Source: an uncultured Haloferula sp. (GTDB lineage: Bacteria; Verrucomicrobiota; Verrucomicrobiia; Verrucomicrobiales; Akkermansiaceae). From it: DNA of 64,000 nucleotides. The notes below the pieces were generated by a model. That model was not told the origin of the DNA and made no database searches. It saw only the letters and a program-made list of their open reading frames with translations. The DNA is taken from positions 96,001 to 160,000 of the forward strand of contig CBFGTS010000007.1 in NCBI GenBank assembly GCA_965652295.1, in the 5' to 3' direction. This document shows positions 1-16,150 of the stretch, one piece after another. A program made the translations under genes and the position numbers. Within the stretch, counting starts at the first letter, position 1. The number at the start of each line of letters is the position of its first letter.

Positions 1-1837
1 GCTCCAAGCCACGCAGGCGCTTCCCGCTGGCATTGCGGTAGAGGAGGATCTTGCTCGCGATTTCCGCCTTGCTGCGGGTGCCACCGGCGAGGAGCTGGCG
101 AATCTTGCCAGTGTTGAAGTCGAAGCTCGTGAGGGCATCGAGTTCGTGCGGCTCGAACTCGATACCGACCCGTGCGGCCTCGTCTTCGACCCGCTTCCGG
201 TGCTGGGAGAGTTCGACGTCGAGACGCCGCGCGGCTTCGGCCTTGTCGATGACCTCGCCGGGTTGCGCCTTGGTCCCGTAACCAATGCTCCACTGGCCGT
301 GGTCCCAATAGGCTTTGCGGTGAAAGCCCTCGGCCTCTCCACCGGCCTCGAACTGCTTCACCATGTCCTTGAGGCTTCCGCCGACTGGCTGATCGGGGGT
401 GGCGTCTCGCGCGCCGGGCGGCCCGCCGGCTTCTCCCAGCATCTCCGAGAGCGAGCGCCGACGTTCCTCGACAGGCACGGAGCCTCCAGAGAGGACCGAT
501 CCGGCGATCTCATCCATCGCCACCTTCCGGAACTGCTGATCGAAATCCTTGGCCTCGGGGTTGTCGCGCAACCATTCGGTCATCCGTTCCTCGACCCTCT
601 CACGACGGCGGAGGATCTCGGTTTCCCGCTCGGCATACTCGAAGGGCGATAGCTCCTCGTCTTCGTCAATCGATCCGAACGCGCCGGCCTTCTGATAGAC
701 CGCTGAGAGCTTCGAAATCTCCCGCTCGCGGCTCTGATCGCGCGCCTCCTGAAGGTTCTTGCCGTTCCAGGCAGCCGGGTCGAGAGCATGAACACGTTGC
801 CGGAGCGCACCGGACCCGTCTCGGGCACCCATGGCATACACGACCTGGGCCACTTCGTCGTGAGCCGCCCGGTAGTCATCCAGGTTCATTTCTCCCGACT
901 TGTAGGCGTCATGGAGTTCGTTGAGCTGGTCGGTGATCGCGAAACGGGATTCGGCATCGACCGGCTGTGCCTGTTGGAAGTTGAACAGCAGCTCATCATG
1001 CAAGGCCTCCTCGATGTAGGGACTCCTCTCCAATTGTCGGCGCAATTCTTCCTCGGTCGAGACTTCCCCGGTCTCAATCGCCGTGGAGATCGCCTTGAGC
1101 TGCTCTTTCTGAAAGGCCTGAACATCCGCCTCAAGCCCACGAACGAGGCGCTCCCGGTCCACCTCGGAAATTCCTGGGGTGTTGGTTACAAAATCTGGTG
1201 TCCTCACTTCTTCCAGAAGAGCCCTCGGGTCTTCCTCCCGACGTTGCGAAAGCTCTCTGAGAGTCGCCATCCGCAGCCCCTCCCGCTGGAGCCGATCCCG
1301 ATCGGCCTCCCCAACAAGTCCAGTCGCGATGCCTCGGCTCACGGCTTGTTCGTACTGATTCAGGTCTCCACGCGACGCATGGTAGTTCAGCTCTCCCGCG
1401 AACTTCGCCTGCGAGTTCTGATATATTTTGCGGGCCGCCAAGCCTTCAAATTGAAGCGTCTTCCGGACTGCCCATCCTTCGAACTCACCAAGGGCCTTTC
1501 CCTGAGCTTCGGGGGAGAGTTCAAGCGTTGCGAGCTGGTTTCGCATCTGGGAGATCATCTGAGCCGAATCCCCCTTCCAATTCTCCGGATCTTGCCGACT
1601 GATCAAGCCGTCCTCAAAACGTGAAGCCTCCATTGAGGCTTGCCGCATGAAGGCAGAGATTTTGCCTCCCTCCTCGGCGACGCGGATTTCCTCGGCAAGC
1701 TGAAAGCCCTTGTCCCCAACGGCAGCAATGGTCTGCCCGAATTGGGCCATGGCCTTGCCTCTGGCCATGGCGACAGAGGGATCGGCTCGCGGCATAGCTG
1801 GGCCCGCGGACAGGTATTGAGTTGGCGGAAGTGGCAT
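1..1837 (-). CDS. Large internal-virion/ejection-like protein with C-terminal GH24 phage lysozyme domain (3' end outside window)
   Basis: Manually translated, open from ATG 1837 (MPLPPTQYLSAGPAMPRADP...) to the window edge; distal part MVKQFE...EGFHRKAYWDHGQWSIGYGT...DALTSFDFNTG...RGLE matches GH24 lysozyme motifs. Confidence 0.8.
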   Translation of the reverse strand, partial: MPLPPTQYLSAGPAMPRADPSVAMARGKAMAQFGQTIAAVGDKGFQLAEEIRVAEEGGKISAFMRQASMEASRFEDGLISRQDPENWKGDSAQMISQMRNQLATLELSPEAQGKALGEFEGWAVRKTLQFEGLAARKIYQNSQAKFAGELNYHASRGDLNQYEQAVSRGIATGLVGEADRDRLQREGLRMATLRELSQRREEDPRALLEEVRTPDFVTNTPGISEVDRERLVRGLEADVQAFQKEQLKAISTAIETGEVSTEEELRRQLERSPYIEEALHDELLFNFQQAQPVDAESRFAITDQLNELHDAYKSGEMNLDDYRAAHDEVAQVVYAMGARDGSGALRQRVHALDPAAWNGKNLQEARDQSREREISKLSAVYQKAGAFGSIDEDEELSPFEYAERETEILRRRERVEERMTEWLRDNPEAKDFDQQFRKVAMDEIAGSVLSGGSVPVEERRRSLSEMLGEAGGPPGARDATPDQPVGGSLKDMVKQFEAGGEAEGFHRKAYWDHGQWSIGYGTKAQPGEVIDKAEAARRLDVELSQHRKRVEDEAARVGIEFEPHELDALTSFDFNTGKIRQLLAGGTRSKAEIASKILLYRNASGKRLRGLE

Positions 1838-1839
1838 GG

Positions 1840-2352
1840 TTAGTTGATGGCAGTGGTGGATTTTGGGGAGCGTTTGAGCTTCCCAGAAGAGGTGAGGTAG
1901 CCGGAGGTGGCGGAAGAAACTCCCTGCAGGGCGGTGGCATAACTCTGCGTTCTCAGGGCTGCTGCTTCGTTTTCACCCTGCCAGATGTCCATCTGTGCGC
2001 CTTGAATCAGAGCCCGGTAGCGATTCGAGGCCTCAAAGGACATGTCCTGAATGTCGCGATCCAGCATGGCGGCCGTTTCTCCCAATACCGCCAATGGAGT
2101 ACCCTCCATCGTCAGTCCGCTCGCCGCATTGGCGGCCCGGATTCGCGCAAGTTCGCGGTTGTTCTCTCGGGCTTTGCGGCGGGCATTCTCGGCGACCACT
2201 TTGTTCTCCTGGTCGGCCTGCTGGCGCTGGAGTTCCGAGTTGTAGCGGGCTGAGTTTTCGGCGGCCTTGGCGGCGTTCTGCTGGCCTTGGACGGAGACAG
2301 CCGTACCGGCGAGGGAAACGACAGTGGAGATGCCGATGATCCAGTAGCTCAT
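1840..2352 (-). CDS. Small internal virion/ejection protein (T7 gp14 / P22 gp7-like)
   Basis: Hydrophobic Gly/Ala N-terminus, Gln/Ala helical middle, AANAASGLTMEGTPL segment typical of podovirus small ejection proteins. Confidence 0.65.
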   Translation of the reverse strand: MSYWIIGISTVVSLAGTAVSVQGQQNAAKAAENSARYNSELQRQQADQENKVVAENARRKARENNRELARIRAANAASGLTMEGTPLAVLGETAAMLDRDIQDMSFEASNRYRALIQGAQMDIWQGENEAAALRTQSYATALQGVSSATSGYLTSSGKLKRSPKSTTAIN

Positions 2353-2837
2353 GATTGGGGAAGGTTATGTGGCTGGGACGCCCATCCGTGGGAGAGCGCC
2401 GGGTGATTTTCCGGAAGAAGGGAGTTCTGGTGAGGTTCCAGAATTTGCTCCCCGATTTTGAGAATATCGGTCTCCTCGGTGACGTGAAAGGTGGTCCAGA
2501 TGGTGTCGTCGAGAGCGTAAAGCATGCGGCGCGTTCCTGGTTCAGTGACACCGGTGAAAGGCGCGGCGTATTCGACGTGCTCCGTCTCGGAGATGACGCG
2601 GATCCGCCCGGCGGAAATCACGAACGGATGCCGGGTCTTGTGGGTGGCCGAGGTGAGGAGGGCTCCTTTGGGAATGTGGCACTCCCGAATATAGAGACCT
2701 GGAGTGAAACGATGGACGACGTGGATTGCAGCGTGTTCAGCCCCATTGGCGATGCTGTTTGCCATCGCTGCCTCAAGCTCGTCGATCGAGTCTCCCGCCA
2801 CCTTCGATGGCTTCTGGCGTGGATTTAGGGAGTTCAT
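2349..2837 (-). CDS. Phage cupin-like protein
   Basis: HRFTPGLYIRECHIPKG...HKTRH...PGTRR pattern; ATGA overlaps at both ends. Confidence 0.7.
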   Translation of the reverse strand: MNSLNPRQKPSKVAGDSIDELEAAMANSIANGAEHAAIHVVHRFTPGLYIRECHIPKGALLTSATHKTRHPFVISAGRIRVISETEHVEYAAPFTGVTEPGTRRMLYALDDTIWTTFHVTEETDILKIGEQILEPHQNSLLPENHPALSHGWASQPHNLPQS

Positions 2838-3100
2838 GATTTCAGGAATTTCGAGAGTTCTTCCGTCCCCTTGGAAGTCAGGGAATAGATGGTCTTGCCG
2901 CCGGACTTCACGGCCTCCGCCAACCCCTCCGCCAGAAGGTGGTTCTGGAGGCAATTCCAGATGCCTGAGGTGCTGCCGCCGGTGCGTTCGACGAGCTGGG
3001 CGTATGAGACGTCACCTGTGCCGATCTCAAGCAGCACGAGCAGCTCCAGGTCGCTCCAGCGGCGGCGGAACTTCCGTTGGATAATCGATTTCAGTTTCAT
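2834..3100 (-). CDS. Winged-helix DNA-binding protein
   Basis: MKLKSII...LLVLLEIG...SYAQLVERTG...YSLTSKG; ATGA-coupled. Confidence 0.7.
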   Translation of the reverse strand: MKLKSIIQRKFRRRWSDLELLVLLEIGTGDVSYAQLVERTGGSTSGIWNCLQNHLLAEGLAEAVKSGGKTIYSLTSKGTEELSKFLKS

Positions 3101-3363
3101 CCGCAGGCGGCGTGAAATTGACGGTGAAACGCGAACATCCTTTCCCGGCTTTCGCGGACGGTTTGAACGAGGTCTTCGGCCTGGGCGTCCGTGTGCTCGA
3201 AAATCGCCGCCTCGAAGCATCTCGGGCACTCGTTCGTCTCGATGCTCCCTAGCTTCAGGATGTCCGGGCGAAGTAGATCCGTTCGGCAAACTGCGAAGGC
3301 CTTCCCGCAGGTCTCGCACTCGTAATATCGGATGGCACCGTGGTAGGAAGGTGGCGTGGTCAT
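3097..3363 (-). CDS. Small CxxC-CxxC zinc-finger protein
   Basis: CETC and CPRC motifs; ATG overlaps rep stop. Confidence 0.6.
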   Translation of the reverse strand: MTTPPSYHGAIRYYECETCGKAFAVCRTDLLRPDILKLGSIETNECPRCFEAAIFEHTDAQAEDLVQTVRESRERMFAFHRQFHAACG

Positions 3364-4235
3364 GGTTCGCGGCAGAGGGCTAGAGCTTCCTCGGTGGTGA
3401 GGGTTTCGCAGTCGTCGGGCTCGATCTTTGATGAAATCGGAACTGATTGGGCGCGGGAGTCCCACCAGCTCTTGCCGGTGCTGCGCCACCACGGGCGGAT
3501 TTTCTGAATGGCCTCGAAATATTGGCGGAGAAACTCGCCTCGATCGCGGGGCCAGAGCTTTCGGCCGCGAACGCGGTCGGTTGCCTCATTCCACGCGAGG
3601 ATGGCCGACCAATCGTCCGGGGCATGGTCCTGGAGGTGGGGGAGGATGAGACGGAAGTCGGCTCGCTCAGCCGGAGAGAGAGCCGGGGGAGCATCGGAGA
3701 AGCACCGGCAGAGATGGTCGAGGATCTCGCAGGGCACTCCGAGAGCATCGGCCGACGAAGTCGGGGGGGTGGGGGCACACGTTCCCTCCCCCGTTCCCTT
3801 TGGGTTCCTTTTGGGATCGTAGGCAGAATCCTTCCGGGGTGGGGGGTAGGATTCTTCCGGGGTGGGGGGCTGTTTTCTGCCGGGGGTGGTGACAGAATCC
3901 TTCCGGGGTGCTGTTTTCTTCACCCCGGCAGAATCCTTCCGGGGTGATTTCATGGATTCCGCGCGGTTTTTCAAAAAATCCATTTCCACGCGGTAAACGG
4001 TTGTTCTGCCTGGGCGCTCTCTCAGCACGGAAAGCTCTCCGCTCTCCAACAGAGCGCGGAGGTGGACACGCACGCCACGCTCGCTTTCCAGCCCGCATTT
4101 CAGCGCCATCGTGGTGAGGCTTGGCCAAGCGTTCCCCTCATCATTGGCGCAGTCCGCCAGCGCCAGCAACACGAGCTTCCGTGCCCCTTTCGCGCGACTG
4201 CCGAACCATACTGCCGTGGTGGCGGCCACGCTCAT
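3360..4235 (-). CDS. Phage-type replication initiator (N-terminal HTH, replisome-organizer-like)
   Basis: KLVLLALADCANDEGNAWPSLTTMALKCGL..R.V N-terminus; central repeat region carries iterons. Confidence 0.8.
   Translation of the reverse strand: MSVAATTAVWFGSRAKGARKLVLLALADCANDEGNAWPSLTTMALKCGLESERGVRVHLRALLESGELSVLRERPGRTTVYRVEMDFLKNRAESMKSPRKDSAGVKKTAPRKDSVTTPGRKQPPTPEESYPPPRKDSAYDPKRNPKGTGEGTCAPTPPTSSADALGVPCEILDHLCRCFSDAPPALSPAERADFRLILPHLQDHAPDDWSAILAWNEATDRVRGRKLWPRDRGEFLRQYFEAIQKIRPWWRSTGKSWWDSRAQSVPISSKIEPDDCETLTTEEALALCREP
3824..3946. repeat. Iteron array (putative origin) inside rep gene
   Basis: CAGAATCCTTCCGGGGTG exact at 3824, 3893 and 3929, degenerate at 3847 and ~3870; A/T tract at 3967-3979. 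Confidence 0.8.
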
Positions 4236-4501
4236 GATTCGTGTGAATCGGGGGTTGAAAGGAGTCGGTAGCTGGAACGGATCCGGCGGCCTTTCATTCG
4301 CTGCTGGAGGTTCTCTATCCGCCACCCATAGGGTTTCCTCAATTTTGCGACGGAGGAATGAACGGCGCCGTTGCAGGATTTGCGCATGAGCACATCGAGG
4401 CCGACGGGATCGGGATAGGCTTCCTCGAGGAGTTCGAGAACGGTGGCGCATTGGGTTCCTTTATTCGGGCGGCGAGGTTGGTAATCTGATTGTTCGGACA
4501 T
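4232..4501 (-). CDS. Small helix-turn-helix protein
   Basis: TQCATVLELL...AVHSSVAKLRKPYGWRIEN...YRL; stop overlaps rep ATG. Confidence 0.6.
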   Translation of the reverse strand: MSEQSDYQPRRPNKGTQCATVLELLEEAYPDPVGLDVLMRKSCNGAVHSSVAKLRKPYGWRIENLQQRMKGRRIRSSYRLLSTPDSHES

Positions 4502-4589
4502 GGTCGTTTGTAGTTGCGACCAGCTCCTGAGAATGGTTCCCTGCGGTTGCGACGGCGGGGGCCGGTTCTCTTCGGAGGCCGGTCTTTTG

Positions 4590-4835
4590 CTATCCGTGCG
4601 TGGCGATTTTGATTTCGGAGGATTTCCCGATTCCGGCTTCAATGAAGCGATCAAGGGACTGGCGACAGATCAGCCGGCGACCTCGGCTTGCTCCCGGAGC
4701 GCGGACTGTCGAGGAGACGATCAAGCGATCGTTGATGTAGTTCCGGAGCGTCCGGATGTTGAGACCGGAATAGATCGCAGCGTCCTGCATCGTGAGCCAG
4801 CGACGCTCCGTCTGGCAGTGTTGGGGGTTAGGCAT
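4590..4835 (-). CDS. Excisionase/AlpA-like HTH protein
   Basis: WLTMQDAAIYSGLNIRTLRNYI...RRLICRQSLDRFI. Confidence 0.8.
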   Translation of the reverse strand: MPNPQHCQTERRWLTMQDAAIYSGLNIRTLRNYINDRLIVSSTVRAPGASRGRRLICRQSLDRFIEAGIGKSSEIKIATHG

Positions 4836-4904
4836 GCGCTAACCATGCCCGTCGATTCCTTCGAAATACCTGAGACGTTCAGAGATGAACTCTCATGTGT
4901 TGAA

Positions 4905-5750
4905 TCACTGGGAAAGCGACTTCACCTCGTTGCCCAGCGTCACAATAAATCCCCGATCCATCTTCCTGTTGTGATTGGGGGGGCCTTCGTATCCAATGAG
5001 CTTGAAAGCCTTGGTGTAGGGCGCTTGATCGTCGGTTGCCGGCATTTTGTCCGGATATGCGGTCTCAAGAAACACCTTGAATTCGGCCTTCGTTGGAAGC
5101 CGGCGGAGGCGGTCCTCAAGCCACGGGACCCAGCGTAGGACCTCAGCGGCGATGCGCATGTGATGGGGCGGAGCGATCTCATCCGCGGCGCGAATGATCC
5201 GAAGGGTGGAACTCAGGGCCTCCATGCGAGGAACGTCCAAGCAAAAGACTGCTCGGAGCATCATGGCTTCCATTATTCCTCGGGCGAGGATCCTCACGCC
5301 TTGATCCCGCTTCGTATTTTTGGGGCCTCTCGGCGAAAGGATCTCTGGATAGAGGAAGGCATCCAGTACCGGGAGCCACTCCGGCATGTGGGGTGAGAAG
5401 GTTCCCTTTTTTCCGGTGGCTGAGAGTGTCACGTATGCGAGACGCCGCCGCACTCGCTCGATGTCTTTGCAGCGCTGAGCCGAATCCTCTTTTCTGAACG
5501 CCTCAACAATCTTGTTTGCCAGCTCGTTGCGACTGAGGGCGGCGGCTTCATTGACCACTCCGCCCGTGAGGAGCCGGAACGCGAAGTAGGAAATCAGCTC
5601 GGGGCTCGGTATCGGGAGCGATCCATCGTGAAGCCAATCGTTGAGAAGAATCTCCGCGGCACGGGGGTGATTGACGAAGCTCTCCACCTCCTGAAGGAGC
5701 TTTTGCCCCTGGTCGGTGAGGGTGGAATCGAAAGAGAGCTGGGCCTTCAT
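4905..5750 (-). CDS. Hypothetical protein (element-borne)
   Basis: 281-aa ORF filling the gap between hicB and xis; no motif recognised. Confidence 0.6.
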   Translation of the reverse strand: MKAQLSFDSTLTDQGQKLLQEVESFVNHPRAAEILLNDWLHDGSLPIPSPELISYFAFRLLTGGVVNEAAALSRNELANKIVEAFRKEDSAQRCKDIERVRRRLAYVTLSATGKKGTFSPHMPEWLPVLDAFLYPEILSPRGPKNTKRDQGVRILARGIMEAMMLRAVFCLDVPRMEALSSTLRIIRAADEIAPPHHMRIAAEVLRWVPWLEDRLRRLPTKAEFKVFLETAYPDKMPATDDQAPYTKAFKLIGYEGPPNHNRKMDRGFIVTLGNEVKSLSQ

Positions 5751-5757
5751 CGAAAGC

Positions 5758-6180
5758 TCAAGCGAGCGCTTTGCGGACGCTCCTAGGATCGGAGGCGGCG
5801 AGACGGAGGAGAGTGCGGGCAGCCCCGCTGGGCCGGGACACGTGTTGTTCCCACTTGTGGAGGGTGCGCACGCTCACGTTGAGCAGCCGGGCGAATTCTG
5901 CTTGGGAAAGCCCCATGGCTTTGCGGGTGAGGACCGGGTCCGGGTCGGTCGGTGCGTTGGCCGGAGGTTCAGGGAGCTTGAGCCCTGCTTCGTCCCATTG
6001 CGCCACCGTCTCCTCTGCGAGCCGGTTGAGGGCTCTGAAGACTTCGACCGGATCGTCTCCATGGTCGCAATCGCCGCAGAGACCTTCGATGCTGCCAATG
6101 AAAGCTCCATCCTCGTCGCTCCAACGGACGGACTTCGGGTAGGCGGCGGCGCGTTGCCGGATTTCAGGGGTGATCTTCAT
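5758..6180 (-). CDS. hicB: HicB-family antitoxin with C-terminal Xre HTH
   Basis: WSDEDGAFIGSIEGL...HGDDPVE HicB domain; RKAMGLSQAEFARLLNVSVRTLHKWEQ HTH. Confidence 0.8.
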   Translation of the reverse strand: MKITPEIRQRAAAYPKSVRWSDEDGAFIGSIEGLCGDCDHGDDPVEVFRALNRLAEETVAQWDEAGLKLPEPPANAPTDPDPVLTRKAMGLSQAEFARLLNVSVRTLHKWEQHVSRPSGAARTLLRLAASDPRSVRKALA

Positions 6181-6377
6181 GGCTTGGTTTCTTCGATCTT
6201 CTGTTTCACCTGCCGCTCCAGGTAGGTCTTCGCGTCATCGCCATCCCGGCCTGGGATGATCATGACGGTCCGCCCTTGGTTGGCTTCGAACTTGCGGTGG
6301 CTTCCTTTTCCCCCGGGGACGTGCTGGAAGCCCGCCTTGCGGAGGTCTTTGATGAGATCGCGGATCTTGCGTGGCAT
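6177..6377 (-). CDS. hicA: HicA-family mRNA interferase toxin
   Basis: 66 aa, LRKAGF...GKGSHRKF motif, ATGA overlap with hicB. Confidence 0.9.
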   Translation of the reverse strand: MPRKIRDLIKDLRKAGFQHVPGGKGSHRKFEANQGRTVMIIPGRDGDDAKTYLERQVKQKIEETKP

Positions 6378-6381
6378 GGGT

Positions 6382-6409
6382 ACTATGCCCTAAATGGGCA
6401 GGGTTTCAA
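6382..6409 (-). promoter_or_regulatory. hicAB promoter with palindromic operator
   Basis: TTGAAA-16nt-CATAGT on minus strand; palindrome TGCCC-N5-GGGCA at 6386-6400. Confidence 0.55.
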
Positions 6410-6416
6410 GAGGGAA

Positions 6417-7604
6417 TCAGAAGGAAGGGAGGGCGGCGATGGCGCGATCGAGGGCCTCGTCGTGGTGGGTGTAGCGGCCATGCACGCCGGCGCTGCTGTG
6501 TCCGGTGAGGCGCTGGCGCACGTCGGCGTGAATGTCGGCCTCGGCGAGCCAGGAGGCGAAGCTATGGCGGAGGCTGTGAAAGCTCCGGCGTTTTACCACG
6601 TCGCCGGCCTCGGTGATTTCCCGCGCTACCCCGGCCCGCTCCATGAGTCGGGTGAATTGGGTGGAAAGGGTGCCGGTTTTTGTCCCCTTCAGGGAGGGGA
6701 AGAAAGCTCCCTCGCGTTCTCCGATCCATGCGAGGCAAGGGGGTGTGAGGGGGACCGTGAGGGTCTTCCGGCTCCGCTTCGTCTTCTCAGGGCGGATCAC
6801 CAGCCGGGAGCCCTCGAGGTGCTCTCGTCCGAGTCGGATCACGTCGCCAAGCCGCAGACCAGTGTGGGCAGCGATGAGGATCACACCGCGCCATTCGTCG
6901 GACGTGCCGGGATGATCGAGCATGGCGCGGACCTCCTGAGTGGTGAAAGGGGCGCGTTCGGTGCTGTCGTCGGTGGGAAGGGGGCGGATACCTTCCGCAG
7001 CGTTGGCCTTGGCGAGTCCCGCATCGACCGCGTCGCGGAGGGCCCGGCGGAGGCACCGGAGGTCAAGGTTGGCGGTGGCGGCTGTGACGGTGCGGCCGCT
7101 GCCCTTCACCTTGGTCTTCACGATCTTGCCGATGGCCTTCTCAATGTCCGCCTGTTTGAGGTCTCCGACGGCGCTGGCGGCGAGCTTCGGACCGAGAGCG
7201 GCCACGATGCGGCGTTCCATGTCCTTATAGACCCGGAGGGTGCTCTCGGAGACGTGCGGGGCCTGGCGTTTCACCCAGCCGGCGAGGTGTTCCGCGAGGG
7301 TGACGTCCACAAAATCCGGGTTCGCCACCTTGTGGAGCTTTCGGATGAGTTCCTCAGCCCGGGCAAGGGTGAGTTCGCCGGCCGCGGCTTCCCGGGTGGC
7401 GGCATCCACTACCGCGGCAAAGGCCTTGGGGAGGTGGGAGTTGCTCTTCCGCTTCTCGCGCTCCTTCGCCTCGAAGTCGGCAGCGATCTCGCGGGCCTCA
7501 CGCTTCTTGGGTGTCCTGGTCGACCTCGAAATCCGCTTCCCGTCGGCATCGATGAAGCGGGCGAACCAGTTCGGGTTGTCGGGATCTCGGTAGAGGGTAG
7601 CCAT
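6417..7604 (-). CDS. int: Tyrosine recombinase/integrase
   Basis: HTGLRLGD, K, FHSLRHSF, LTGHSS, RYTH catalytic set; start MATLYRDP at 7604. Confidence 0.95.
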   Translation of the reverse strand: MATLYRDPDNPNWFARFIDADGKRISRSTRTPKKREAREIAADFEAKEREKRKSNSHLPKAFAAVVDAATREAAAGELTLARAEELIRKLHKVANPDFVDVTLAEHLAGWVKRQAPHVSESTLRVYKDMERRIVAALGPKLAASAVGDLKQADIEKAIGKIVKTKVKGSGRTVTAATANLDLRCLRRALRDAVDAGLAKANAAEGIRPLPTDDSTERAPFTTQEVRAMLDHPGTSDEWRGVILIAAHTGLRLGDVIRLGREHLEGSRLVIRPEKTKRSRKTLTVPLTPPCLAWIGEREGAFFPSLKGTKTGTLSTQFTRLMERAGVAREITEAGDVVKRRSFHSLRHSFASWLAEADIHADVRQRLTGHSSAGVHGRYTHHDEALDRAIAALPSF

Positions 7605-7617
7605 CGGAGCGGGGCTG

Positions 7618-7671
7618 ACTGAACACGATACTGAACAGACTGAACAGGAAAGCACGGGAAAAGTGTTCAGT
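7618..7671. repeat. Putative integrase arm-type binding sites
   Basis: ACTGAACA direct at 7618, 7630 and 7639; inverted TGTTCAGT at 7664. Confidence 0.6.
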
Positions 7672-7708
7672 TGGCCTAGAATCCATTGCGGCTCTAAGGC
7701 TGTGGTGT

Positions 7709-7744
7709 AATAGGTCGTAGGTTCGAACCCTACCGCCGGAGCCA
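7709..7744 (+). other. att site: duplicated 3' part of a tRNA (probably tRNA-Asn)
   Basis: GGTCGTAGGTTCGAACCCTACCGCCGGAGCCA = T-arm, acceptor 3' strand and CCA; 5' half absent; GGAGCCA end is typical of tRNA-Asn. Confidence 0.85.
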
Positions 7745-7746
7745 AT

Positions 7747-7781
7747 GAAGGGCGCTGATTCTCAACGAGTCAGCGCCCTTC
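7747..7781 (+). terminator. Stem-loop after tRNA fragment (likely the original tRNA terminator)
   Basis: GAAGGGCGCTGATTC-TCAAC-GAGTCAGCGCCCTTC, 15-bp stem. Confidence 0.7.
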
Positions 7782-7815
7782 GCCTTTCCTGAGGGCGAAA
7801 TCGAGGTGAACATTC

Positions 7816-8127
7816 GTGAAAGAAATGCGCGGCGATTTGCCTCGTGATCCGGATAGTGGACGGGAAGATTTCGTTTTGATGAAAAACCTGGAAGATGCCT
7901 TTATCGAGCTTGATGACGCCTTGGAGCGCGCAGTCGCAGCCGGTCTTGCCCTGAGGCAGTTGAGGACCAGTCGGATCCACGAAGTGTGGACTCCCGACAT
8001 CGGCTCCGAACTCGAGCCTCTCCTCAAGGAGATGTCGGATGCCTGCCATCTGCTGTACCAGGCAAATGAGACGGTCGAACTCATGAACCGGGAACGACTC
8101 AACTCCGCCGTATCGAGAGACGCTTGA
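7816..8127 (+). CDS. Hypothetical helical protein
   Basis: Protein-like ORF filling the gap; start uncertain. Confidence 0.45.
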   Translation: MKEMRGDLPRDPDSGREDFVLMKNLEDAFIELDDALERAVAAGLALRQLRTSRIHEVWTPDIGSELEPLLKEMSDACHLLYQANETVELMNRERLNSAVSRDA

Positions 8128-8184: not shown

Positions 8185-9387
8185 TCAACGTGGAGCGGCC
8201 AATCTTTCCAGAGCGGTGCGGAGAACGGGATCGGTCCAGTCGTCAAGGCGGCGCTCTTCTTCGGCGGTGAGCGAGGTTCGGCGGAAAGAGAGAGCGATCT
8301 TCTCGCGGGTGGCGTCATCGGTTTCCACGGTCACGTCGGGCTCGATCCCGGTGAGATGGGGTGTCCTGCCACTGGGGGTGTGGTAGGTGGCGATGGTGAG
8401 GCGCAGGGCAGTGCCGCCGCCCATCGGGATGATGTTCTGAACCGAGCCTTTCCCGTAGGAGAGTTCACCGATGACTTCGGCCCGCTTGAGATCCTGCAAT
8501 GCTCCCGCCGTAAGTTCGGAGGCGGACGCGGAGCCGCGATCGATGAGGACGACGAGCGGGTAGTCACGCTTCTGGCGCTGTCGGTCCGGAGTCCGGAGGG
8601 TTTCATCGGTCCCGCCACGGGCGCGGGTGGTGACGACTTCAGTGTCGGGCGGCAGAAAAAGACCGAGGATTTTCACCGTGGCGGCGAGCGATCCGCCGGG
8701 GTTGCCGCGGAGGTCGAGGATGAGGCGCTGCATGCCGCCTTCTTCCATTTCGTCGAGAGAGGCCTCGATTTCACGCGGAGCGGCGTCGGTGAATTCCGCG
8801 AGCCGAAGGTAACCGGTGTCGGTCTCGGGGATCAGGTGGAAATCAGTCACCGCGCGGGTGGGGACAGCGTGGTGGGTGAGTTCGACCTCGATCGGCTTCG
8901 GCGCGGCAGGGGACTTGAGTGTCAAGGTGGAGGTCTCGCCGGGTTCCTGGCGGAGGGCGTTGAGGGTGGCGGCGAGATCGGTCACCGGAAGCCCGTCGAT
9001 TTCCAAAAGAGCCGAGCCCGGGATCAGCTCGGCGGCGGTGGCAGGGGAGCCGGGGAGGACTTGGGCGAGGTAGGCACCGTCGTCGCGCCACCCGAGGACG
9101 AGGCCGAGGGATGGAAGCGAAGGGTCGAGGTCGGGATCGGCCTTCATCATGGCCGCCATTTCCGGGTGGATGAAGGATGAGTGGGGATCGAGCGAGGCGA
9201 GCATGCCTTCCAGCGCGTGATTCACGAGGCGGTCGTAGGCCAGCTTGTCGACATCAGGGTGGCGCTGGCGGACCTGTTCGAGCACCTCGACGAAACGCTC
9301 GATCGCCGGATAGGCGGCTTCCTCCGGATCCGGCGGGGATTGGGCGAGAAGCGGGGTGCAGAGGGAGAGGAGAAGCAGATGTCGCAC
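8185..9387 (-). CDS. Carboxyl-terminal processing protease, S41A
   Basis: Signal peptide, LDPHS, PDZ, LDLRGNPGG, SASASE, SYGKGSVQ. Confidence 0.95.
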   Translation of the reverse strand: MRHLLLLSLCTPLLAQSPPDPEEAAYPAIERFVEVLEQVRQRHPDVDKLAYDRLVNHALEGMLASLDPHSSFIHPEMAAMMKADPDLDPSLPSLGLVLGWRDDGAYLAQVLPGSPATAAELIPGSALLEIDGLPVTDLAATLNALRQEPGETSTLTLKSPAAPKPIEVELTHHAVPTRAVTDFHLIPETDTGYLRLAEFTDAAPREIEASLDEMEEGGMQRLILDLRGNPGGSLAATVKILGLFLPPDTEVVTTRARGGTDETLRTPDRQRQKRDYPLVVLIDRGSASASELTAGALQDLKRAEVIGELSYGKGSVQNIIPMGGGTALRLTIATYHTPSGRTPHLTGIEPDVTVETDDATREKIALSFRRTSLTAEEERRLDDWTDPVLRTALERLAAPR

Positions 9388-9440
9388 GCGAGGATGTTGC
9401 CGATTCCACGCGCTGGTGCGAAGGGAGAAGTGGGGTGGTG

Positions 9441-9695
9441 TTAATCGGTGTGCCGGCGGAGCCAGGCTGCCGCGTACCCGCAGATGGGGCGGATTTTGAG
9501 GCCGCGGGCGCGGGCGATTTCCACAAGTCCCTGCATCAGGCGCCCGGCGGTGCCCTGACCCCGTAGGGCGGGGTCGGCCTCGACGTGGGGAATCACCAGG
9601 GTGTCGCCCTCAAGGCGGTAATCGGCGAAGGCGAGCTTGTCCTGCTCGACCAGCTCGAAGCGCTGGAGCCTGGGGTTGTCCGTGACGCCATACAT
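9441..9695 (-). CDS. Small GNAT acetyltransferase (YjdJ-like)
   Basis: PALRGQGTAGRL, IRPICGY. Confidence 0.85.
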   Translation of the reverse strand: MYGVTDNPRLQRFELVEQDKLAFADYRLEGDTLVIPHVEADPALRGQGTAGRLMQGLVEIARARGLKIRPICGYAAAWLRRHTD

Positions 9696-9698
9696 GAC

Positions 9699-10070
9699 TC
9701 AGATGCGGGTCAGCCAGGTCTCGGCATCGGTCTCGGCGCTGAGGGGGAAGGCTTTGACTTCGAGATTGGGGAAAAGATGCCCTTCCCACTCGCTGACATT
9801 TCGCAGCCAGTTTTTGTCGGCCAGGATGGCGGCGCGCCGGAATCGCTTCATGAGGTGCAACATCTTCGGCATGCGGGAGATCTCCAAGGCCATCGCTCCC
9901 GGCGTGGGGATGTGGAAGTCGTCGATGCGATAGAGCATCGTGCCGGTCCCGTCCTCGATCGTTTCGGCCTGGGCGGCAAATTCATCGAGAACCTCGCGCA
10001 TGGTATCGCGGTCGAGTTTGCCGCCGAAGGTGATGTCGAGGTGGTTGCCGGTGCGGTGGATCTTGAACAT
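9699..10070 (-). CDS. SpoIIAA-like (STAS/SEC14) protein
   Basis: FRRAAILADKNWL...EVKAF...AETWL. Confidence 0.8.
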   Translation of the reverse strand: MFKIHRTGNHLDITFGGKLDRDTMREVLDEFAAQAETIEDGTGTMLYRIDDFHIPTPGAMALEISRMPKMLHLMKRFRRAAILADKNWLRNVSEWEGHLFPNLEVKAFPLSAETDAETWLTRI

Positions 10071-10134
10071 GACGGAAGTGGTTCGGTTCATGATACCGAT
10101 CGCACGCTTCGACGCCCTGCGCAAAGAAAGCATT

Positions 10135-11007
10135 TCATGACCGCCGGCGGCGGAGCATGAGCGAGCCCAAGGGTAGGAGCAGGAGAATCCCCGAGGGCTC
10201 CGGGACGGCGACGATCCCGGTATTTTCCGTGATCCACGGGAAGAAGGAGTCGAGGTAGGTCGCACCACTGATCGCGCCGTAGCGGCTGTTGGTGCCCTGC
10301 GGACGGCTGTCGAGGGTGCTGCGGAAGCTGGCGATGCCGACCAGTCGCGGGACGCCGTTGATGGTCACGAATACCCCGCCGCCGCTGTCGCCTGGCGCCA
10401 CCGCACCTTCCAAGGCACTGGCCAGAGAGGAGGAGCCGGGTGCGTTGTCGAGGTCGTTGCCGCTGTCGAAATCGGAGAGAATCGAGGAGCCGGGAAGGCC
10501 TTCGTAGTCGGGATGATCGCCGAACACGTCGATGACATTGGTGAAGGCGCGCGTCTCGATCACCGGATTGGCACCCGAAGTGCCGGTGCCGGTGAAACCG
10601 GTGCCGACCCAGGTGGCGTCGAGGCCGATCACATCGGTCGGCGTGCCGAACTGATTCATACTGGCGGCAGGGACGTTGCCCACCGCGGTCTGAAGGAAGA
10701 GCAGCCCGAGATCGGAGCTTGGAAACGAGAAATCTGGATGGGGAATGGCGGTGGTGACCGAGTAGATCGTCCCGCCGAGGGTGAAGGTGCCGCTGCCGGA
10801 TTTACCTTGGGCGATATGTCCGGCCGTGAGCACCCAGCGATCCCCGATCAGGACGCCGGAGCCTTGAAGCCCGGGGCCGCCGACCGTGCCGACAGAAGGA
10901 AACTGGGTGGCGAGGTCGCGGGAAAGCTGCGGATCGACCGAATCGAGGAGAGTTGAACCGAAAGCCATGGGCATTCCGAGCAGGCCGACGAGGAGGCGGA
11001 AAAGCAT
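10135..11007 (-). CDS. Trypsin-like serine protease with PEP-CTERM sorting signal
   Basis: LTAGH, SDLGLL, GDSGG triad; VPEPS-TM-RRRR tail. Confidence 0.92.
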   Translation of the reverse strand: MLFRLLVGLLGMPMAFGSTLLDSVDPQLSRDLATQFPSVGTVGGPGLQGSGVLIGDRWVLTAGHIAQGKSGSGTFTLGGTIYSVTTAIPHPDFSFPSSDLGLLFLQTAVGNVPAASMNQFGTPTDVIGLDATWVGTGFTGTGTSGANPVIETRAFTNVIDVFGDHPDYEGLPGSSILSDFDSGNDLDNAPGSSSLASALEGAVAPGDSGGGVFVTINGVPRLVGIASFRSTLDSRPQGTNSRYGAISGATYLDSFFPWITENTGIVAVPEPSGILLLLPLGSLMLRRRRS

Positions 11008-11117
11008 GACTTATGGAATAGGTGGAACCGGTTCGATAAGACACTTCTTTCTGAGCTGACGATGAGATTTCAGAAGTGCTGAGTCGTGGCGGTGACAATG
11101 AGCAGCTTGTTGTCCGT

Positions 11118-12911
11118 CTAGCCCAGAAGCGATCTGGCGAGCGAATAGCCGGATTTGTCCGGAGCTTTGCCGTTGGCGGAAAGGAGTTGCTCGCAGCGGT
11201 GCGCGCCGCGGTCGCAGATGTACTGGGCGATCTGAATCGAGTGTCTGTCCCCGAGGTGATGGGCGCGGGCGGCGGAGACGCTCATGGTGAGCAGCTCGGC
11301 GGCGGTATCGACGAGGCGTCCCAGGAGGAGCTGCTGGCGGTCGAGTTTCGGACCGTATCTTGCCATGGAGTGGAAGATGGCGCGGGCAAGCCGACGACTC
11401 AGCGACGCGGTGCGGCGCATGGAGGACTTGAGGCCGCCGTCGAGGTCGTGGGGGAGTTTGCCGGAAACCGGCAGCCAGCGCTGCGGATACCAGCGGGCGT
11501 AGTGAAGGCCGGCGGAAACGGCGGTTTTCGCGCGCTCGGACATGGGTTTGCGGGTGTCAAGAGCGGCGGCCCCGCGGCGCAGATGGGGATCGAGCGCCTC
11601 ACGGGCGATGAAGAGATGCATGATTTCGGTGGATCCCTCGAAGATCGTGTTGATACGGGAATCGCGGAGAAGGCGTTCGATGGGGTCGGGCTTTTCGCCG
11701 CGGCTGCGGAGTGAGTCCGCGGTTTCATAGCCACGTCCACCTTTGATCTGCATGGTGGAATCGACGCCGTGCCAGCCGGCTTCGGTGCCCCAGAGCTTGG
11801 CGATGGCGGCTTCCATGCGGATGTCCGAGGAGTGGTCGCGGTCGACCAGGGCGGAGGTGAAAAGTACGAGGCTCTCCGTAGCGAAGGCGTCGGCGGCGAG
11901 ATCGGCCAGCTTGGCGGCGATGGCGGCGTGTTTGCCGATTTCCTGGCCCCACTGGACGCGGGTGCGTGACCAATCGAGCGCCATATCGAGACAGCGGTCG
12001 AGCAAACCGACGCAGGCGGCGGGGAGGGTGAGACGTCCGGTGTTGAGGGTGGTGAGTGCAACCTTGAGGCCCTTGCCGACGCCACCGACGACGTTCTCGT
12101 TTGGGATCCGGACATCGGTGAAACGAATCACGCCATTGTAGAGCGCCTTGAGGCCCATGAAGTGACAGCGGTTGACGATCTCGACGCCGGGCCAGTTGGT
12201 CTCGACGATGAAGGCGGTAGTCGCGTGCGGCTTCTCCTCGGTCCGGGTGCGTGCCATGACGATGACCGCGTCGGATTTGAGGACGTTCGTGCACCAGAGT
12301 TTCTCGCCGTTGAGCACCCAGCCATCGCCGGTGTATCGCGCCTCGGTTTTCATCCGGGCGGGATCGGATCCGACTTCCTTTTCGGTGAGGGCGAAGGCGG
12401 AAATGGAGCCGGCGGCGCAGCGGGTGAGGTATTTCTTTTTCTGCGCCTCGGTGCCGAAAACGAGCAGGGGCTGCGGCAGGCCGATCGACTGGTGGGCGGA
12501 AAGCAGTGCGGTGAGGTTGCCGCAATGGCTGCCGAGCACCATGGCGGCGCGGGAGTAGTTGGTTTGGGAAAGCCCGAGGCCTCCGTATTCAGCCGGGATC
12601 TTGATGCCGAAGGCTCCGAGGCGGGCGAGCCCTTCGATCACATGGTCGGGGATCTCGCCGTCGCGATCGATGGCGTCGGGATCGGTTTCGTTTTCAAGAA
12701 AGTTGCGGAGTTTCGAAATGAACTCGTCGCCAGCGGCGCGGTCGTCGTCCGGCTGGGCGGGAAAGGGGAAGATGAGGGAGAAGTCGGGCGAGCCGTTGAA
12801 GACGGAGGCGGCGAAACCGGAGAGTTCGCGGGTATCACGCGAGGACTCCGCGAGCTCGAGCGCGGCGCGCTGGCCCTCGGTCATTTTGGAGGTGTCGATC
12901 AGGCTGCTCAT
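11118..12911 (-). CDS. Acyl-CoA dehydrogenase (long form)
   Basis: AFALTE..VGSD, LNGEKLWCTN, QIKGGRGY, IFEGSTEI. Confidence 0.95.
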   Translation of the reverse strand: MSSLIDTSKMTEGQRAALELAESSRDTRELSGFAASVFNGSPDFSLIFPFPAQPDDDRAAGDEFISKLRNFLENETDPDAIDRDGEIPDHVIEGLARLGAFGIKIPAEYGGLGLSQTNYSRAAMVLGSHCGNLTALLSAHQSIGLPQPLLVFGTEAQKKKYLTRCAAGSISAFALTEKEVGSDPARMKTEARYTGDGWVLNGEKLWCTNVLKSDAVIVMARTRTEEKPHATTAFIVETNWPGVEIVNRCHFMGLKALYNGVIRFTDVRIPNENVVGGVGKGLKVALTTLNTGRLTLPAACVGLLDRCLDMALDWSRTRVQWGQEIGKHAAIAAKLADLAADAFATESLVLFTSALVDRDHSSDIRMEAAIAKLWGTEAGWHGVDSTMQIKGGRGYETADSLRSRGEKPDPIERLLRDSRINTIFEGSTEIMHLFIAREALDPHLRRGAAALDTRKPMSERAKTAVSAGLHYARWYPQRWLPVSGKLPHDLDGGLKSSMRRTASLSRRLARAIFHSMARYGPKLDRQQLLLGRLVDTAAELLTMSVSAARAHHLGDRHSIQIAQYICDRGAHRCEQLLSANGKAPDKSGYSLARSLLG

Positions 12912-12917
12912 GGCGGT

Positions 12918-14873: not shown

Positions 14874-14885
14874 GAAAGTTTGTTG

Positions 14886-14906
14886 GTTTTCAGTGTTCCG
14901 TTTTCA
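14886..14906. repeat. Heptamer array (GTTTTCA type), solo
   Basis: GTTTTCA GTGTTCC GTTTTCA between thiolase and fadJ-like gene. Confidence 0.55.
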
Positions 14907-14920
14907 GGTCCGCTGGTGCG

Positions 14921-16150
14921 TCAACGTTCGAGGAAAAGGGCGGCACCCTGGCCTCCGCCGACGCAGAGGGTGCAGAGGGCGCGGTGGGCCTTGAGTTCGC
15001 GGAGTTGATCGAGCGCGGTAAGGACGAGGCGGGCTCCGGTGGCTCCGACGGGGTGACCGAGAGCGATGGCTCCGCCGCGGCGGTTGAGGATTTCCGAAGG
15101 GATGTCCCAACCGGTGCGGGAAAGCTCTTTCAAGACGGCGATGGCTTGGGCGGCGAAGGCTTCGTTGAGTTCGACGATTTCGGCGCTGGCGGGATCGACG
15201 CCGCGGTGACGGAGGCGGGCGATGGCATGGACGGGGCCGAGGCCCATGCGGGCGGGATCGCAGCCGCTGTAGGCGAAGGCGGTCAGACGACCGAGCGGCT
15301 CAAGGCCAAGCCGCTGGGCGGCGGCTTCGGTGCCGACGAGCAGGGCGACGGCTCCATCGGTGATCTGCGAGCTGTTGCCGGCGGTGACGGTGCCGGTGCG
15401 CTTGTCGAAAATGGGACGGAGCTTTGCGAGTCGTTCGGGCGTGGAATCGTCGCGGATGCCGTTGTCGGCGGTGACCGCCTTGCCGTGGAGATGGACGGGG
15501 GAAATCTCGGTCTTGAGGGCGTCCATGGCGTTGAGGGCCTTGCGGTGGGACTCGGCGGCGAACGCATCCTGTTCGCTACGAGAGATATCGTACTCGCGGG
15601 CGAGGACCTCGGCGGTGTCGCCCATGATCATGCCGGAGACGGGATCGGTGAGGCCGAGTTGGAGGCCGATGCGGGGTTTGAAATCGGCGGTGGTGAACGA
15701 GCTCAGGGCGGAGAGCTTCTGGCCCAGCGACCTGGCGCGCTGGAGACGGGCGAGTTTTTTTGCGGTGGCGTGGGGGTAGAGGAGCGGGATGCGGGACATG
15801 CTCTCGGTGCCACCGACGAGGAAGAGATCGCCGTGACCGCTGGCGGCGCGCTGGGCGGCGGTGGTGATGGCTTCCATGCCGGAGGCGCAGTTGCGGTGGA
15901 CGGTGGCGGCGGGCACGTGCTGTGGAACGCCGGCGCGGAGGGCGATGACGCGGGCGATGTTGGCGGCGTCGGCGGGTTGGGCGACGCAGCCGAAGATGAC
16001 CTCGGAGATTTCACCGGGGTCGATGCCGGTCTGCGTGAGTACGGCGGCGGCGGCGTGCCGACCGAGATCGGCGGCGTCGAGCGGGTCGAGGTCGCTGCCC
16101 ATGCGGCAGAAAGGAGTGCGGGTGCCGGCGAGGATGAAGAGGGGTGACAT
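14921..16150 (-). CDS. Acetyl-CoA C-acyltransferase (thiolase)
   Basis: NCASG, NEAFA, GHPVGATG, CVGGGQG. Confidence 0.95.
   Translation of the reverse strand: MSPLFILAGTRTPFCRMGSDLDPLDAADLGRHAAAAVLTQTGIDPGEISEVIFGCVAQPADAANIARVIALRAGVPQHVPAATVHRNCASGMEAITTAAQRAASGHGDLFLVGGTESMSRIPLLYPHATAKKLARLQRARSLGQKLSALSSFTTADFKPRIGLQLGLTDPVSGMIMGDTAEVLAREYDISRSEQDAFAAESHRKALNAMDALKTEISPVHLHGKAVTADNGIRDDSTPERLAKLRPIFDKRTGTVTAGNSSQITDGAVALLVGTEAAAQRLGLEPLGRLTAFAYSGCDPARMGLGPVHAIARLRHRGVDPASAEIVELNEAFAAQAIAVLKELSRTGWDIPSEILNRRGGAIALGHPVGATGARLVLTALDQLRELKAHRALCTLCVGGGQGAALFLER

Follow-up and report, generated by a model that had tools for sequence, protein, structure and literature searches.

Why should an integrated element with neither head nor tail carry predicted genes for podophage-type DNA delivery? 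The question arises at the left end of the window (the whole stretch of DNA analysed here, 64,000 nucleotides, G000:C7:96001-160000), where an earlier note had seen a replication module running into ejection genes and had suggested a satellite that supplies these proteins to a helper podophage.

Boundaries and Gene Order

On the genome contigs the complete integrated element (G000:C7:85080-103787) measures 18,631 bp, has 77-bp repeats on either side and lies at tRNA-Asn; its right-hand 7.8 kb corresponds to window positions 1..7787 (minus strand). The attR site (7711..7787, plus strand) is a 77-bp direct repeat composed of the tRNA-Asn 3' half plus a terminator hairpin. Its attL copy (C7:85080-85156) is identical at 76 of 77 positions and overlaps the intact tRNA-Asn (C7:85039-85113), which supplies both the tRNA and the element size that the earlier note had placed beyond its view.

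Between attR and the lysozyme-bearing protein every gene is intact, on the minus strand and in the order first described. The 10.9 kb to the left of the window consists of one 2,278-aa ORF and seven small ORFs. The large, gp16-like gene is followed by a 106-aa ORF resembling a phage integrase N-terminus, an RHH repressor (plus strand) divergent from a 169-aa ORF, ORFs of 87 and 183 aa (both minus strand) and, next to attL, two plus-strand cargo ORFs, one for a membrane protein of 253 aa and one for a lipoprotein-like product. PADLOC detected no defence system in the element, and Rfam no RNA besides the tRNA.

Ejection-type Genes

From the small winged-HTH-like ORF to gp14 each start overlaps the preceding stop, as in a coupled operon, the ejection genes lying downstream of rep. 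Promoter signal was not above chance (3 sites versus 2.1 in shuffles).

The 162-aa cupin-like protein (2349..2837, minus strand) has no Pfam match and falls in phrog_12032, labeled "short tail fiber protein" in PHROGs; despite this label, its phage homologs are flanked by the nozzle gene and gp14, and it is 44-51% identical to the intervening gene of phage G586 and prophages G057 and G159. The name cupin follows the earlier note and a sequence motif. In other phages a GNAT-like gene occupies this slot. The adjoining 170-aa protein (1840..2352, minus strand), with a hydrophobic N-terminus, belongs to the T7 gp14 family [PF24072, 29.4 bits against a cut-off of 27; phrog_418 internal virion protein, 5e-15] and is 50-54% identical to gp14 of G585, G586, G057, G159 and sister element L052.

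Next come a gp15-like protein of 626 aa (1..1837, minus strand, its gene running 43 bases past the left edge of the window) and, farther left, a gp16-like protein of 2,278 aa (C7:89054-95890, minus strand). The former ends in a phage lysozyme domain [PF00959, 3e-16] in which Glu and Asp align with those of solved lysozymes and Ser stands where Thr is expected. Hydrophobic segments are found in gp14 and gp16, and none in gp15. Both labels are predictions based upon gene position rather than structure: in the complete phages G585–G587 the ejection homologs follow adaptor and nozzle and precede the tail fiber.

Searches of Pfam, PHROGs and the PDB matched neither gp15 nor gp16 to an ejection protein; PDB sequence searches recovered the lysozyme domain alone, and the solved gp15 and gp16 structures showed no sequence match to the G000 proteins. 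PHROGs placed 4 of 34 gp16 members in unnamed families and 0 of 22 gp15 members. Among GenBank phages gp15 had no match and gp16 six weak ones, of which the one inspected falls, in a Vibrio phage, within the third member of the trio. The ESM Atlas gave T7 gp15 [PF26212, at 0.89] for gp15, as a lead only; the nearest clusters were unnamed viral proteins with low recognition scores, LPD39 in 28% of one cluster being again only a lead.

Homologs of gp16 possess a middle slot of 128 to 551 residues which may carry ART-PolyVal, RadC/JAB, kinase, PBECR5 nuclease (G585) or LPD3 (G007) domains. Single polyvalent-type enzyme domains were present in 8 of the 20 homologs scanned, several below the curated cut-off. 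The G000 slot has 203 residues, 42% charged, and no domain; nor was a Pfam domain found in gp16 of G246, G583 or G267 (last 2,007 aa).

Absence of Morphogenesis and Packaging Genes

None of the 20 element ORFs matched a terminase, portal, capsid, capsid morphogenesis or tail family in Pfam, PHROGs or NCBIfam; several ORFs belong to no family. Hallmark head and tail profiles, built from prophages of the relatives with seed labels checked in PHROGs, gave zero matches in the element or in the whole G000 genome (98% complete), and as a positive control labeled every module of phage G585. Neither the complete podophage set (terminase, portal, capsid, adaptor, nozzle, fiber, lysis) nor the cf-PICI set (own capsid, portal, large terminase, head-tail adaptors) lies within the att pair, and no helper phage was found in the G000 genome. 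The lack of head and tail genes in the part visible to the earlier note therefore extends through the 10.9 kb beyond it, where the terminase, portal and capsid genes of an ordinary prophage might have lain.

The small terminase is likewise absent from G000 (two profiles and tblastn), and this element may be packaging-impaired. A packaging-site sequence common to elements and phages was not found.

Integration, Regulation and Replication

The genes of this module all lie on the minus strand. The 395-aa tyrosine integrase [6417..7604, PF00589], in whose translation the catalytic R, HxxR, H and Y motifs can be seen, is 27-34% identical to the integrases of six sister elements and 57% identical to one in G300 adjoining a prophage that occupies the same tRNA. 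Adjacent are a 66-aa HicA toxin [6177..6377, PF07927, 5e-12] and a 140-aa HicB-like antitoxin with a C-terminal HTH [5758..6180, PF01381], which from adjacency presumably pairs with HicA. A 281-aa ORF (4905..5750) has no family; sister elements hold 205-290-aa ORFs in the slot following the integrase, none matching it.

The excisionase-like HTH_17 regulator [4590..4835, PF12728, phrog_66] belongs to a family (F11) common to G000 and six sister elements. In the Pfam scan HTH_17 was barely over the cut-off, MerR fell under it and AlpA was unmatched; the regulator is better described as HTH_17/excisionase-like than as AlpA. An 89-aa winged-HTH-like ORF (4232..4501) shows weak similarity, below cut-off, to PF22979. 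It precedes a 291-aa O-like replication initiator, HTH_36 [3360..4235, PF13730, 4e-9; phrog_391, 3e-21], within which four 20-nt direct repeats (3822..3946) are predicted to be origin iterons. The G000 replicon thus has an O-like initiator, primase being unmatched in Pfam and PHROGs; relatives add DnaB or DnaC-like genes. An 88-aa protein with a CxxC...CxxC sequence motif (3097..3363) has a homolog at the same place in G246 [26%, 3e-7]. The 88-aa wHTH protein (2834..3100), also of a family common to G000 and six sister elements, is 58% identical to the gene that directly precedes the small terminase in the complete phage G585 and is predicted to be a late regulator.

Related Elements in Other Genomes

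Seven further att-bounded, capsid-less elements of 15-28 kb were found in related genomes at four other tRNAs, the sites of the eight being tRNA-Asn, -Tyr, -Val, -Ala (4) and -Ser. Gene neighborhoods were inspected around 14 of 14 family matches, 17 of 41 further order matches and 10 new phylum matches of 42 matching genomes. The gp15+gp16 pair is present in all eight (gp16 is broken in G582), gp14 was detected in two, and the small terminase in seven, that is, in every relative and not in G000, located before, after or on both sides of the pair. Integrase, excisionase, wHTH and 169-aa ORF families are common to the elements, an ancestry of the backbone that rests on BLAST families, and the replicons differ. 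The 169-aa ORF and Cro-like HTH families were unmatched in the podophage early regions compared. Six of the eight elements are about half the size of the 38-41-kb phage genomes.

The layout of integrase, rep and ejection genes accordingly recurs, a check that the earlier note had called for, and since integrases, tRNAs and replicons differ among the seven it does not derive from one recent deletion. These findings, and the discovery of a third and largest ejection-type gene left of the window, support the satellite reading. Truncated prophage-like remnants also occur in the group (partial elements G240, G365, G083 and G074).

Four IMG/VR matches were all phage-sized, and the three read nearly or fully are complete phages. 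Contigs of 17-19 kb bearing some database homologs were considered as free circles and rejected, because one such cluster is nearly identical to the protein of phage G587. The attP joint was not found in 4 of 4 contig sets, which, being assembled contigs, cannot show absence. In contig set X4 the gp14/cupin region is almost without coverage, an observation given no weight here.

Selection, Capture and Recombination

The gp15+gp16 pair is under purifying selection (dN/dS 0.11-0.35). For gp16 the ratio is 0.20 between G000 and G007 (dS 0.88), 0.11-0.17 among G583, G584 and L052, and 0.18 against G186; it is 0.14-0.24 in six of seven gp16 segments, and 0.20-0.31 for gp15.

A first tree gave a single satellite gp16 clade, which was broken by adding IMG/VR phages and database homologs. 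With these included, two capsid-less clades have 100/100 support, the satellite gp16s interleave with those of phages, and the one-clade test is rejected (AU p 1e-40); a single origin is therefore rejected. The pair appears to have been captured repeatedly from temperate podophages, a pattern which repeated prophage reduction would also produce.

The G000 gp15 is chimeric, with a lineage switch near residues 200-240: over most of residues 1-140 it is 38-53% like the G583/L052/G186 type and after residue 240 it is 55-88% like G007. In the tree its gp14 falls together with those of the matching phages (SH-aLRT 100). Judged from these sequences, the gp14–gp15 front end is swapped between phage types.

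Relationship to Known Systems

No class of satellites supplying its own ejection proteins was found in the literature searched, in agreement with the earlier note, which had not recognized the architecture; EcCIMP1 is nearest. This PICI of E. coli MP1 (helper vB_EcoP_Kapi1) is (PMC11773190) likewise integrated, capsid-less and helper-mobilized. Its "DNA transfer"-like genes downstream of the replicon resemble helper genes, as in the G000 element, no terminase was identified there, and a second regulator lies at the far end. It differs in phylum and in its primase replicon, and the paper proposes a packaging role for the genes, the words ejection and injection being absent from its main text; the likeness is one of description.

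SatelliteFinder PICIs (PMC10085698) share with the family an integrase, regulator and replicon in one direction and terminal cargo, and the small terminase found in seven of eight members; the G000 element itself has the integrase and att of the PICI core (PF00589, 77-bp repeats). For the rest of that core, an AlpA, MerR or Stl homolog as regulator and a primase-replicase module, G000 offers the HTH_17 regulator and the O-like initiator described above. PICIs typically lack other structural genes and have a median of 9.5 kb, whereas half of the G000 element consists of virion-internal genes (a gp14 homolog and gp15/gp16-like genes), with capsid-morphogenesis gene and small terminase not found. 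In the same account (PMC10085698) cf-PICIs resemble it in having a PICI-like backbone that repeatedly acquired part of the virion genes from phages; they supply the head and borrow tails, while the Verrucomicrobiota family brings the internal conduit alone and has to borrow both.

Compared with the T7 ejectosome, as reviewed in PMC8954989, there is the same small-medium-large trio after the nozzle, with gp14 homology and with hydrophobic segments in gp14 and gp16, not gp15. Lysozyme on the gp15 equivalent recalls K1E and K1-5, and T7-type gp16 proteins range in the review from 609 to 1,337 aa, against 2,278 aa here. Polyvalent phage proteins (PMC5512222) also have swappable enzyme domains, lie among late genes and occur in Verrucomicrobia; the word "satellite" is absent from the paper's main text, and G000 gp16 has no recognized enzyme domain, let alone the several unlike ones of a large polyvalent protein. 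VEIMEs are satellites that integrate, some of them in Verrucomicrobia, and that are packaged as concatemers with no remodeling of the capsid; internal virion genes are unmentioned in the passages considered of PMC9618062, whose supplements may list them.

A Model and its Alternatives

We consider it probable, with some reserve, that these elements are a PICI-like satellite family which puts ejection proteins of its own into the particles of a helper podophage, so that its DNA enters through a self-encoded channel. Helper induction would relieve repression, integrase and excisionase would excise the element and the initiator would replicate it, after which the coupled operon would express cupin, gp14, gp15 and gp16 late. 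The satellite ejection proteins would be packed in helper heads beside or instead of the helper's copies, the cupin–gp14–gp15 N-terminal block matching helper head and nozzle (in G000, those of the G585/G586/G057 type). Helper terminase would package the satellite DNA, and in the relatives a small terminase of their own would redirect it; the DNA may be packaged as dimers, most elements being about half a phage genome. During infection the conduit through periplasm and inner membrane would be formed by the lysozyme-bearing gp15 together with gp16.

Might each element instead be an independent podophage deletion derivative whose ejection genes have no current role? The rep-wHTH-(gap)-cupin-gp14-gp15-gp16 order is that of G585/G586 minus the head-tail block, satellite and phage gp16s interleave, and both the broken gp16 of G582 and the missing small terminase of G000 look like decay. 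We nevertheless regard this as quite unlikely, for purifying selection operates inside clades that are capsid-less throughout, sizes are similar, att pairs intact and backbone genes held in common that are unmatched in the podophage early regions compared, and the small terminase varies in position about the pair. Furthermore, in a gp16 variant from another study 27 of 34 listed differences (40 of 587 rows, hand count) are at third codon positions.

Other roles for the proteins are also unlikely. That they mainly disable helper-DNA particles, as dominant negatives or as a conduit passing only satellite DNA, would be in keeping with the cut in helper yield common among satellites (PMC12772148) and with the DNA-clamping role given to T7 gp16 in the review (PMC8954989), and would solve the sharing of an entry benefit in trans; full-length genes, a kept lysozyme active site and constraint across the whole of gp16 fit working parts better than decoys, and T7 gp16 is described there as binding DNA independently of sequence, which leaves this unlikely. 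Injected polyvalent proteins have been described (PMC5512222), and the varied enzymes in a variable gp16 middle might suggest that the pair is kept to carry its own cargo into the host, but the empty slot of G000 and the domain-free gp16s of G246, G583 and G267 (last 2,007 aa) speak against this, retention of gp15 is left unexplained, and we judge it distinctly improbable. Very improbable indeed is host defense, in which proteins made in the resting cell block DNA entry by related podophages: the genes belong to the coupled operon and follow rep, promoter signals do not exceed chance, and gp15 lacks a hydrophobic segment by which its lysozyme could be exported.

Returning to satellites that furnish their own conduit, the weakest step is the benefit. 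Virion proteins act in trans, and helper genomes from the same cell would therefore share any advantage in entry. No receptor-binding gene supports the changed host range raised in the earlier note, and the pattern of gene retention agrees better with escape from entry blocks. In P22, SieA blocks the gp20/gp16 conduit, gp7 not being implicated, and foreign ejection genes can take the place of the native ones in virions, with partial escape from SieA (PMC10461980). By analogy the satellites could pass superinfection exclusion or entry blocks aimed at helper gp15/gp16 and so enter helper-holding cells, a suggestion we advance tentatively, as somewhat short of an even chance; among the candidate helpers no exclusion protein was recognized. 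More speculative still is an unrecognized, convergent class of satellites in Verrucomicrobiota and Enterobacteria that uses podophage heads and tails, brings its own conduit, retunes its front end by recombination and slips into helper lysogens.

Described satellites, to our knowledge, target capsid size, packaging or tail attachment. Investment of half a genome in an entry conduit would make genome delivery a battleground of its own for satellite, helper and host, and the natural chimeras would show which regions of gp14, gp15 and gp16 have to be compatible with the virion. The findings also provide candidates, within Verrucomicrobiota, for satellite and for helper podophage, and would explain a type of island that core-gene screens would throw out as defective.

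Extent and gene content of the element

In the genome under study (G000; 4.37 Mb, 98% complete), in which the window spans C7:96001-160000, the att sequence at window positions 7711–7787 has a second copy 18,631 bp leftward, in tRNA-Asn, with 76 of 77 bases identical. The whole element is therefore visible, including the left part that the earlier note had placed outside the window; each gene listed in that note was found and none is broken. Left of the window a 2,278-aa ORF lies immediately after the lysozyme-bearing gene, accompanied by seven small ORFs. The absence of head and tail genes noted earlier extends to this part also: the 20 element proteins gave no match to terminase, portal, capsid or tail-tube proteins in Pfam, PHROGs or NCBIfam, the sole "tail" labels being PHROGs names for the cupin-like ORF and, weakly (E 0.03), for the HicB HTH. 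Profiles for large terminase, portal, scaffold, capsid, cement, adaptor, nozzle and fibre proteins were seeded from prophages of relatives, with seed labels verified in PHROGs (except cement, whose seed matched nothing there). Neither the element nor the genome as a whole gave a match, and as a positive control the profiles labelled all modules of podophage G585.

Directly outside attR lies a 103-aa ORF (window 7816–8127, + strand). From their translations we take the genes at window 8185–16150 to be those of the host; they presumably include a C-terminal-processing-type protease, a protease-like protein with a PEP-CTERM-type tail (10135–11007), and a fatty-acid oxidation cluster composed of acyl-CoA dehydrogenase, a multifunctional enzyme and thiolase.

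Predicted ejection proteins

The 170-aa protein is a homolog of T7 gp14 (PF24072 above cut-off; phrog_418). The 626-aa and 2,278-aa proteins gave no ejection-protein matches in Pfam, PHROGs or the PDB, and the labels gp15 and gp16 rest on gene position; gp15 equivalents are described in PMC8954989 as mostly recognized through size and synteny. In G585, G586 and G587, which are records of complete phages, the homologs are preceded by adaptor, nozzle and gp14 and followed by the fibre gene; those in prophages come after nozzle and gp14. Both gp14 and gp16 contain hydrophobic segments and gp15 has none, which is the pattern reported for the T7 ejectosome, and in phages K1E and K1-5 the lysozyme has relocated to gp15 (PMC8954989). 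The lysozyme of G000 gp15 retains Glu and Asp at the aligned catalytic positions. The gp16 family has 1,119 representatives (E up to 0.001), some with an ADP-ribosyltransferase, JAB, kinase, PBECR5 or LPD3 domain in the middle, resembling the polyvalent proteins of PMC5512222; in G000 this slot comprises 203 residues, 42% charged, without a domain.

The left end (locus L003) holds several smaller features. After gp16 stands a separate 106-aa ORF (L003:4706-5026; C7:88706-89026). It shares 35–39% identity with the N-termini of the G585 and G586 phage integrases and 41% with an equally placed 132-aa ORF of G232. By analogy with the second AlpA of EcCIMP1 it could have a role in helper excision. 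A 15-bp sequence absent from the rest of the genome occurs twice at L003:4441-4504, between the RHH gene and the 169-aa ORF diverging from it, and is likely the operator of a switch at the integrase-distal end. In the non-coding left part a 10-bp unit is repeated perfectly 3.8 times (L003:2680-2717); repeats of this period, which phage G318 has too and which in G007 and G270 lie close to the small terminase, are possible packaging or binding sites. Downstream of the leftward small genes a hairpin-bearing non-coding stretch of 76 nt is 79% identical between G000 and G007 (L003:2967-3033; L025:7328-7401).

Recurrence of capsid-less elements

Of 300 other genomes of the family, 14 encode a match to the gp15-like protein. 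The surroundings of every match were read: eight include capsid and tail genes, one (G270) is a 13.6-kb contig without capsid genes, and five are att-bounded and capsid-less, at tRNA-Tyr (G007, 27.7 kb), tRNA-Val (G267, 18.15 kb), tRNA-Ala (G186, 18.1 kb; G246, 19.9 kb) and tRNA-Ser (G232, 17.8 kb). A scan of species genomes gave seven loci, three not seen before: G583 (tRNA-Ala, 19.2 kb), G582 (tRNA-Ala, 15.0 kb) and G584, spread over two contigs; a metagenome scan added L052. The layout described in the earlier note thus recurs in other PVC genomes, with eight att-bounded capsid-less elements when G000 is counted. All eight carry gp15 and gp16, seven a small terminase, and gp14 was detected in two. 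They have integrase, excisionase, wHTH and 169-aa ORF families in common; their replicons differ. In G582 (L120:10805-15293) an inversion-like rearrangement interrupts gp16 and one piece is fused to a small terminase, reflecting either decay or misassembly.

Outside the family, the DNA read from G303, G331 and G390 had no capsid genes, and a search for an att pair found none. These make up three of 17 further order-level contexts; eight of the 17 have portal or capsid genes, two are broken or cut off, and four show adaptor and ejection genes with no capsid gene in view, two of these adjoining phage early genes and being perhaps split prophages. Head or tail genes were present in eight of ten phylum-level contexts, the other two being ambiguous. 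A 16.5-kb element of G240 (L092:15248-L093:11807), with 97-bp repeats at tRNA-Val, encodes integrase, a cement fragment, adaptor, nozzle, GNAT, gp14, an 820-aa ORF and gp16, without capsid, portal or terminase. G365 is similar. Elements of this type may be satellites with tail-hub and ejection genes, or else remnants.

Selection and evolutionary history

Pairwise dN/dS (Nei-Gojobori script) for gp16 was 0.20 between G000 and G007 (dS 0.88), 0.11–0.17 among G583, G584 and L052, 0.18 against G186, and 0.28–0.35 for the satellite pairs furthest apart, whose dS approaches saturation. Values for gp15 were 0.20–0.31. Since G000+G007+G267 and G186+G583+L052 each have 100/100 support in the gp16 tree, these comparisons most parsimoniously fall within capsid-less lineages. 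The two clades are not sisters, and the second joins phage G585. A single satellite clade, suggested by an earlier tree lacking those phages, was ruled out when all seven were forced together (AU p 1e-40). Two non-sister clades, one of them joining a phage, and rejection of their joint grouping indicate that the ejection module was taken or refreshed from podophages several times; cf-PICI head genes were likewise captured more than once (PMC10085698).

G000 gp15 is chimeric. The N-terminal part of the protein falls with G583, G186, G585, G586, G057 and G159 (SH-aLRT 99) and is only 15–20% like G007, whereas residues 241–626 are 55–88% like G007. The G000 gp14 and cupin follow the N-terminal grouping; G007 instead has a GNAT-like gene and a gp14 like those of G300, G158 and G055. 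A variant in another study's run differs at one of 910 bases in the host flank, and its gp16 pieces are 94–97% identical, with 27 of the 34 gp16 differences listed falling on third codon positions (hand count from 40 rows of 587). Two runs with identical sequence are not independent and may be the source of the G000 genome.

Behind the prophages of G159 (L039-L041), G057 (L037-L038) and G264 (L115) come arrays in which cupin-gp14-gp15 and partial gp16 cassettes are repeated, with gp14-gp15 in three copies in G159. These arrays resemble the Verrucomicrobium cassettes of PMC5512222 and are a possible reservoir for swapping. A full prophage in G300 (L141:14139-14238, L032:9224-11793) has the same tRNA attachment sequence as G000. 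At its end stand two integrase genes in tandem, and the product of one is 57% identical to the G000 integrase.

Relation to known satellites and proposed function

Unlike PICIs as delimited in PMC10085698, which as a rule have no further structural genes, the G000 element has some; it also departs from them in that neither a small terminase nor a capsid morphogenesis gene was found in it. Functionally it probably resembles a PICI that hijacks by a different module. No description of satellites with their own ejection proteins was found in the full texts searched, which were mostly those of openly accessible papers. The nearest case is EcCIMP1, which is helper-mobilized and carries "DNA transfer"-like genes, for which its authors propose a packaging role (PMC11773190). 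The G000 copy may be poorly mobile, since no excised form was seen in four of four contig sets, none of four IMG/VR matches was satellite-sized, the genome contains no helper, and G000 alone among the eight att-bounded elements has no small terminase.

The observed layout is real and recurrent, and its gp15 and gp16 genes are under purifying selection. The most likely reading is that the family members are satellites of temperate Verrucomicrobiota podophages resembling G585 and G586, and bring their own conduit; interference, payload delivery, prophage decay and host defence are the rival readings. For a conduit-bearing satellite, a front block varying with phage type would fit it to the head and nozzle of the helper; in P22 the gp14 equivalent varies least and has a proposed tail contact (PMC10461980). 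Six of the eight elements measure 17.8–19.9 kb, about half of the 38.4–40.9-kb phages, which would fit packing of dimers into unmodified helper heads; VEIMEs are packaged as concatemers (PMC9618062).

The gp15 and gp16 pair, which is always kept, would be the counterpart of the P22 gp20 and gp16 conduit, which is blocked by SieA and for which foreign genes can substitute, with partial escape (PMC10461980). Because of this match we prefer, by analogy, escape from exclusion as the purpose of the module. No exclusion gene was identified in the material examined. The benefit of such escape would extend to helper genomes too.
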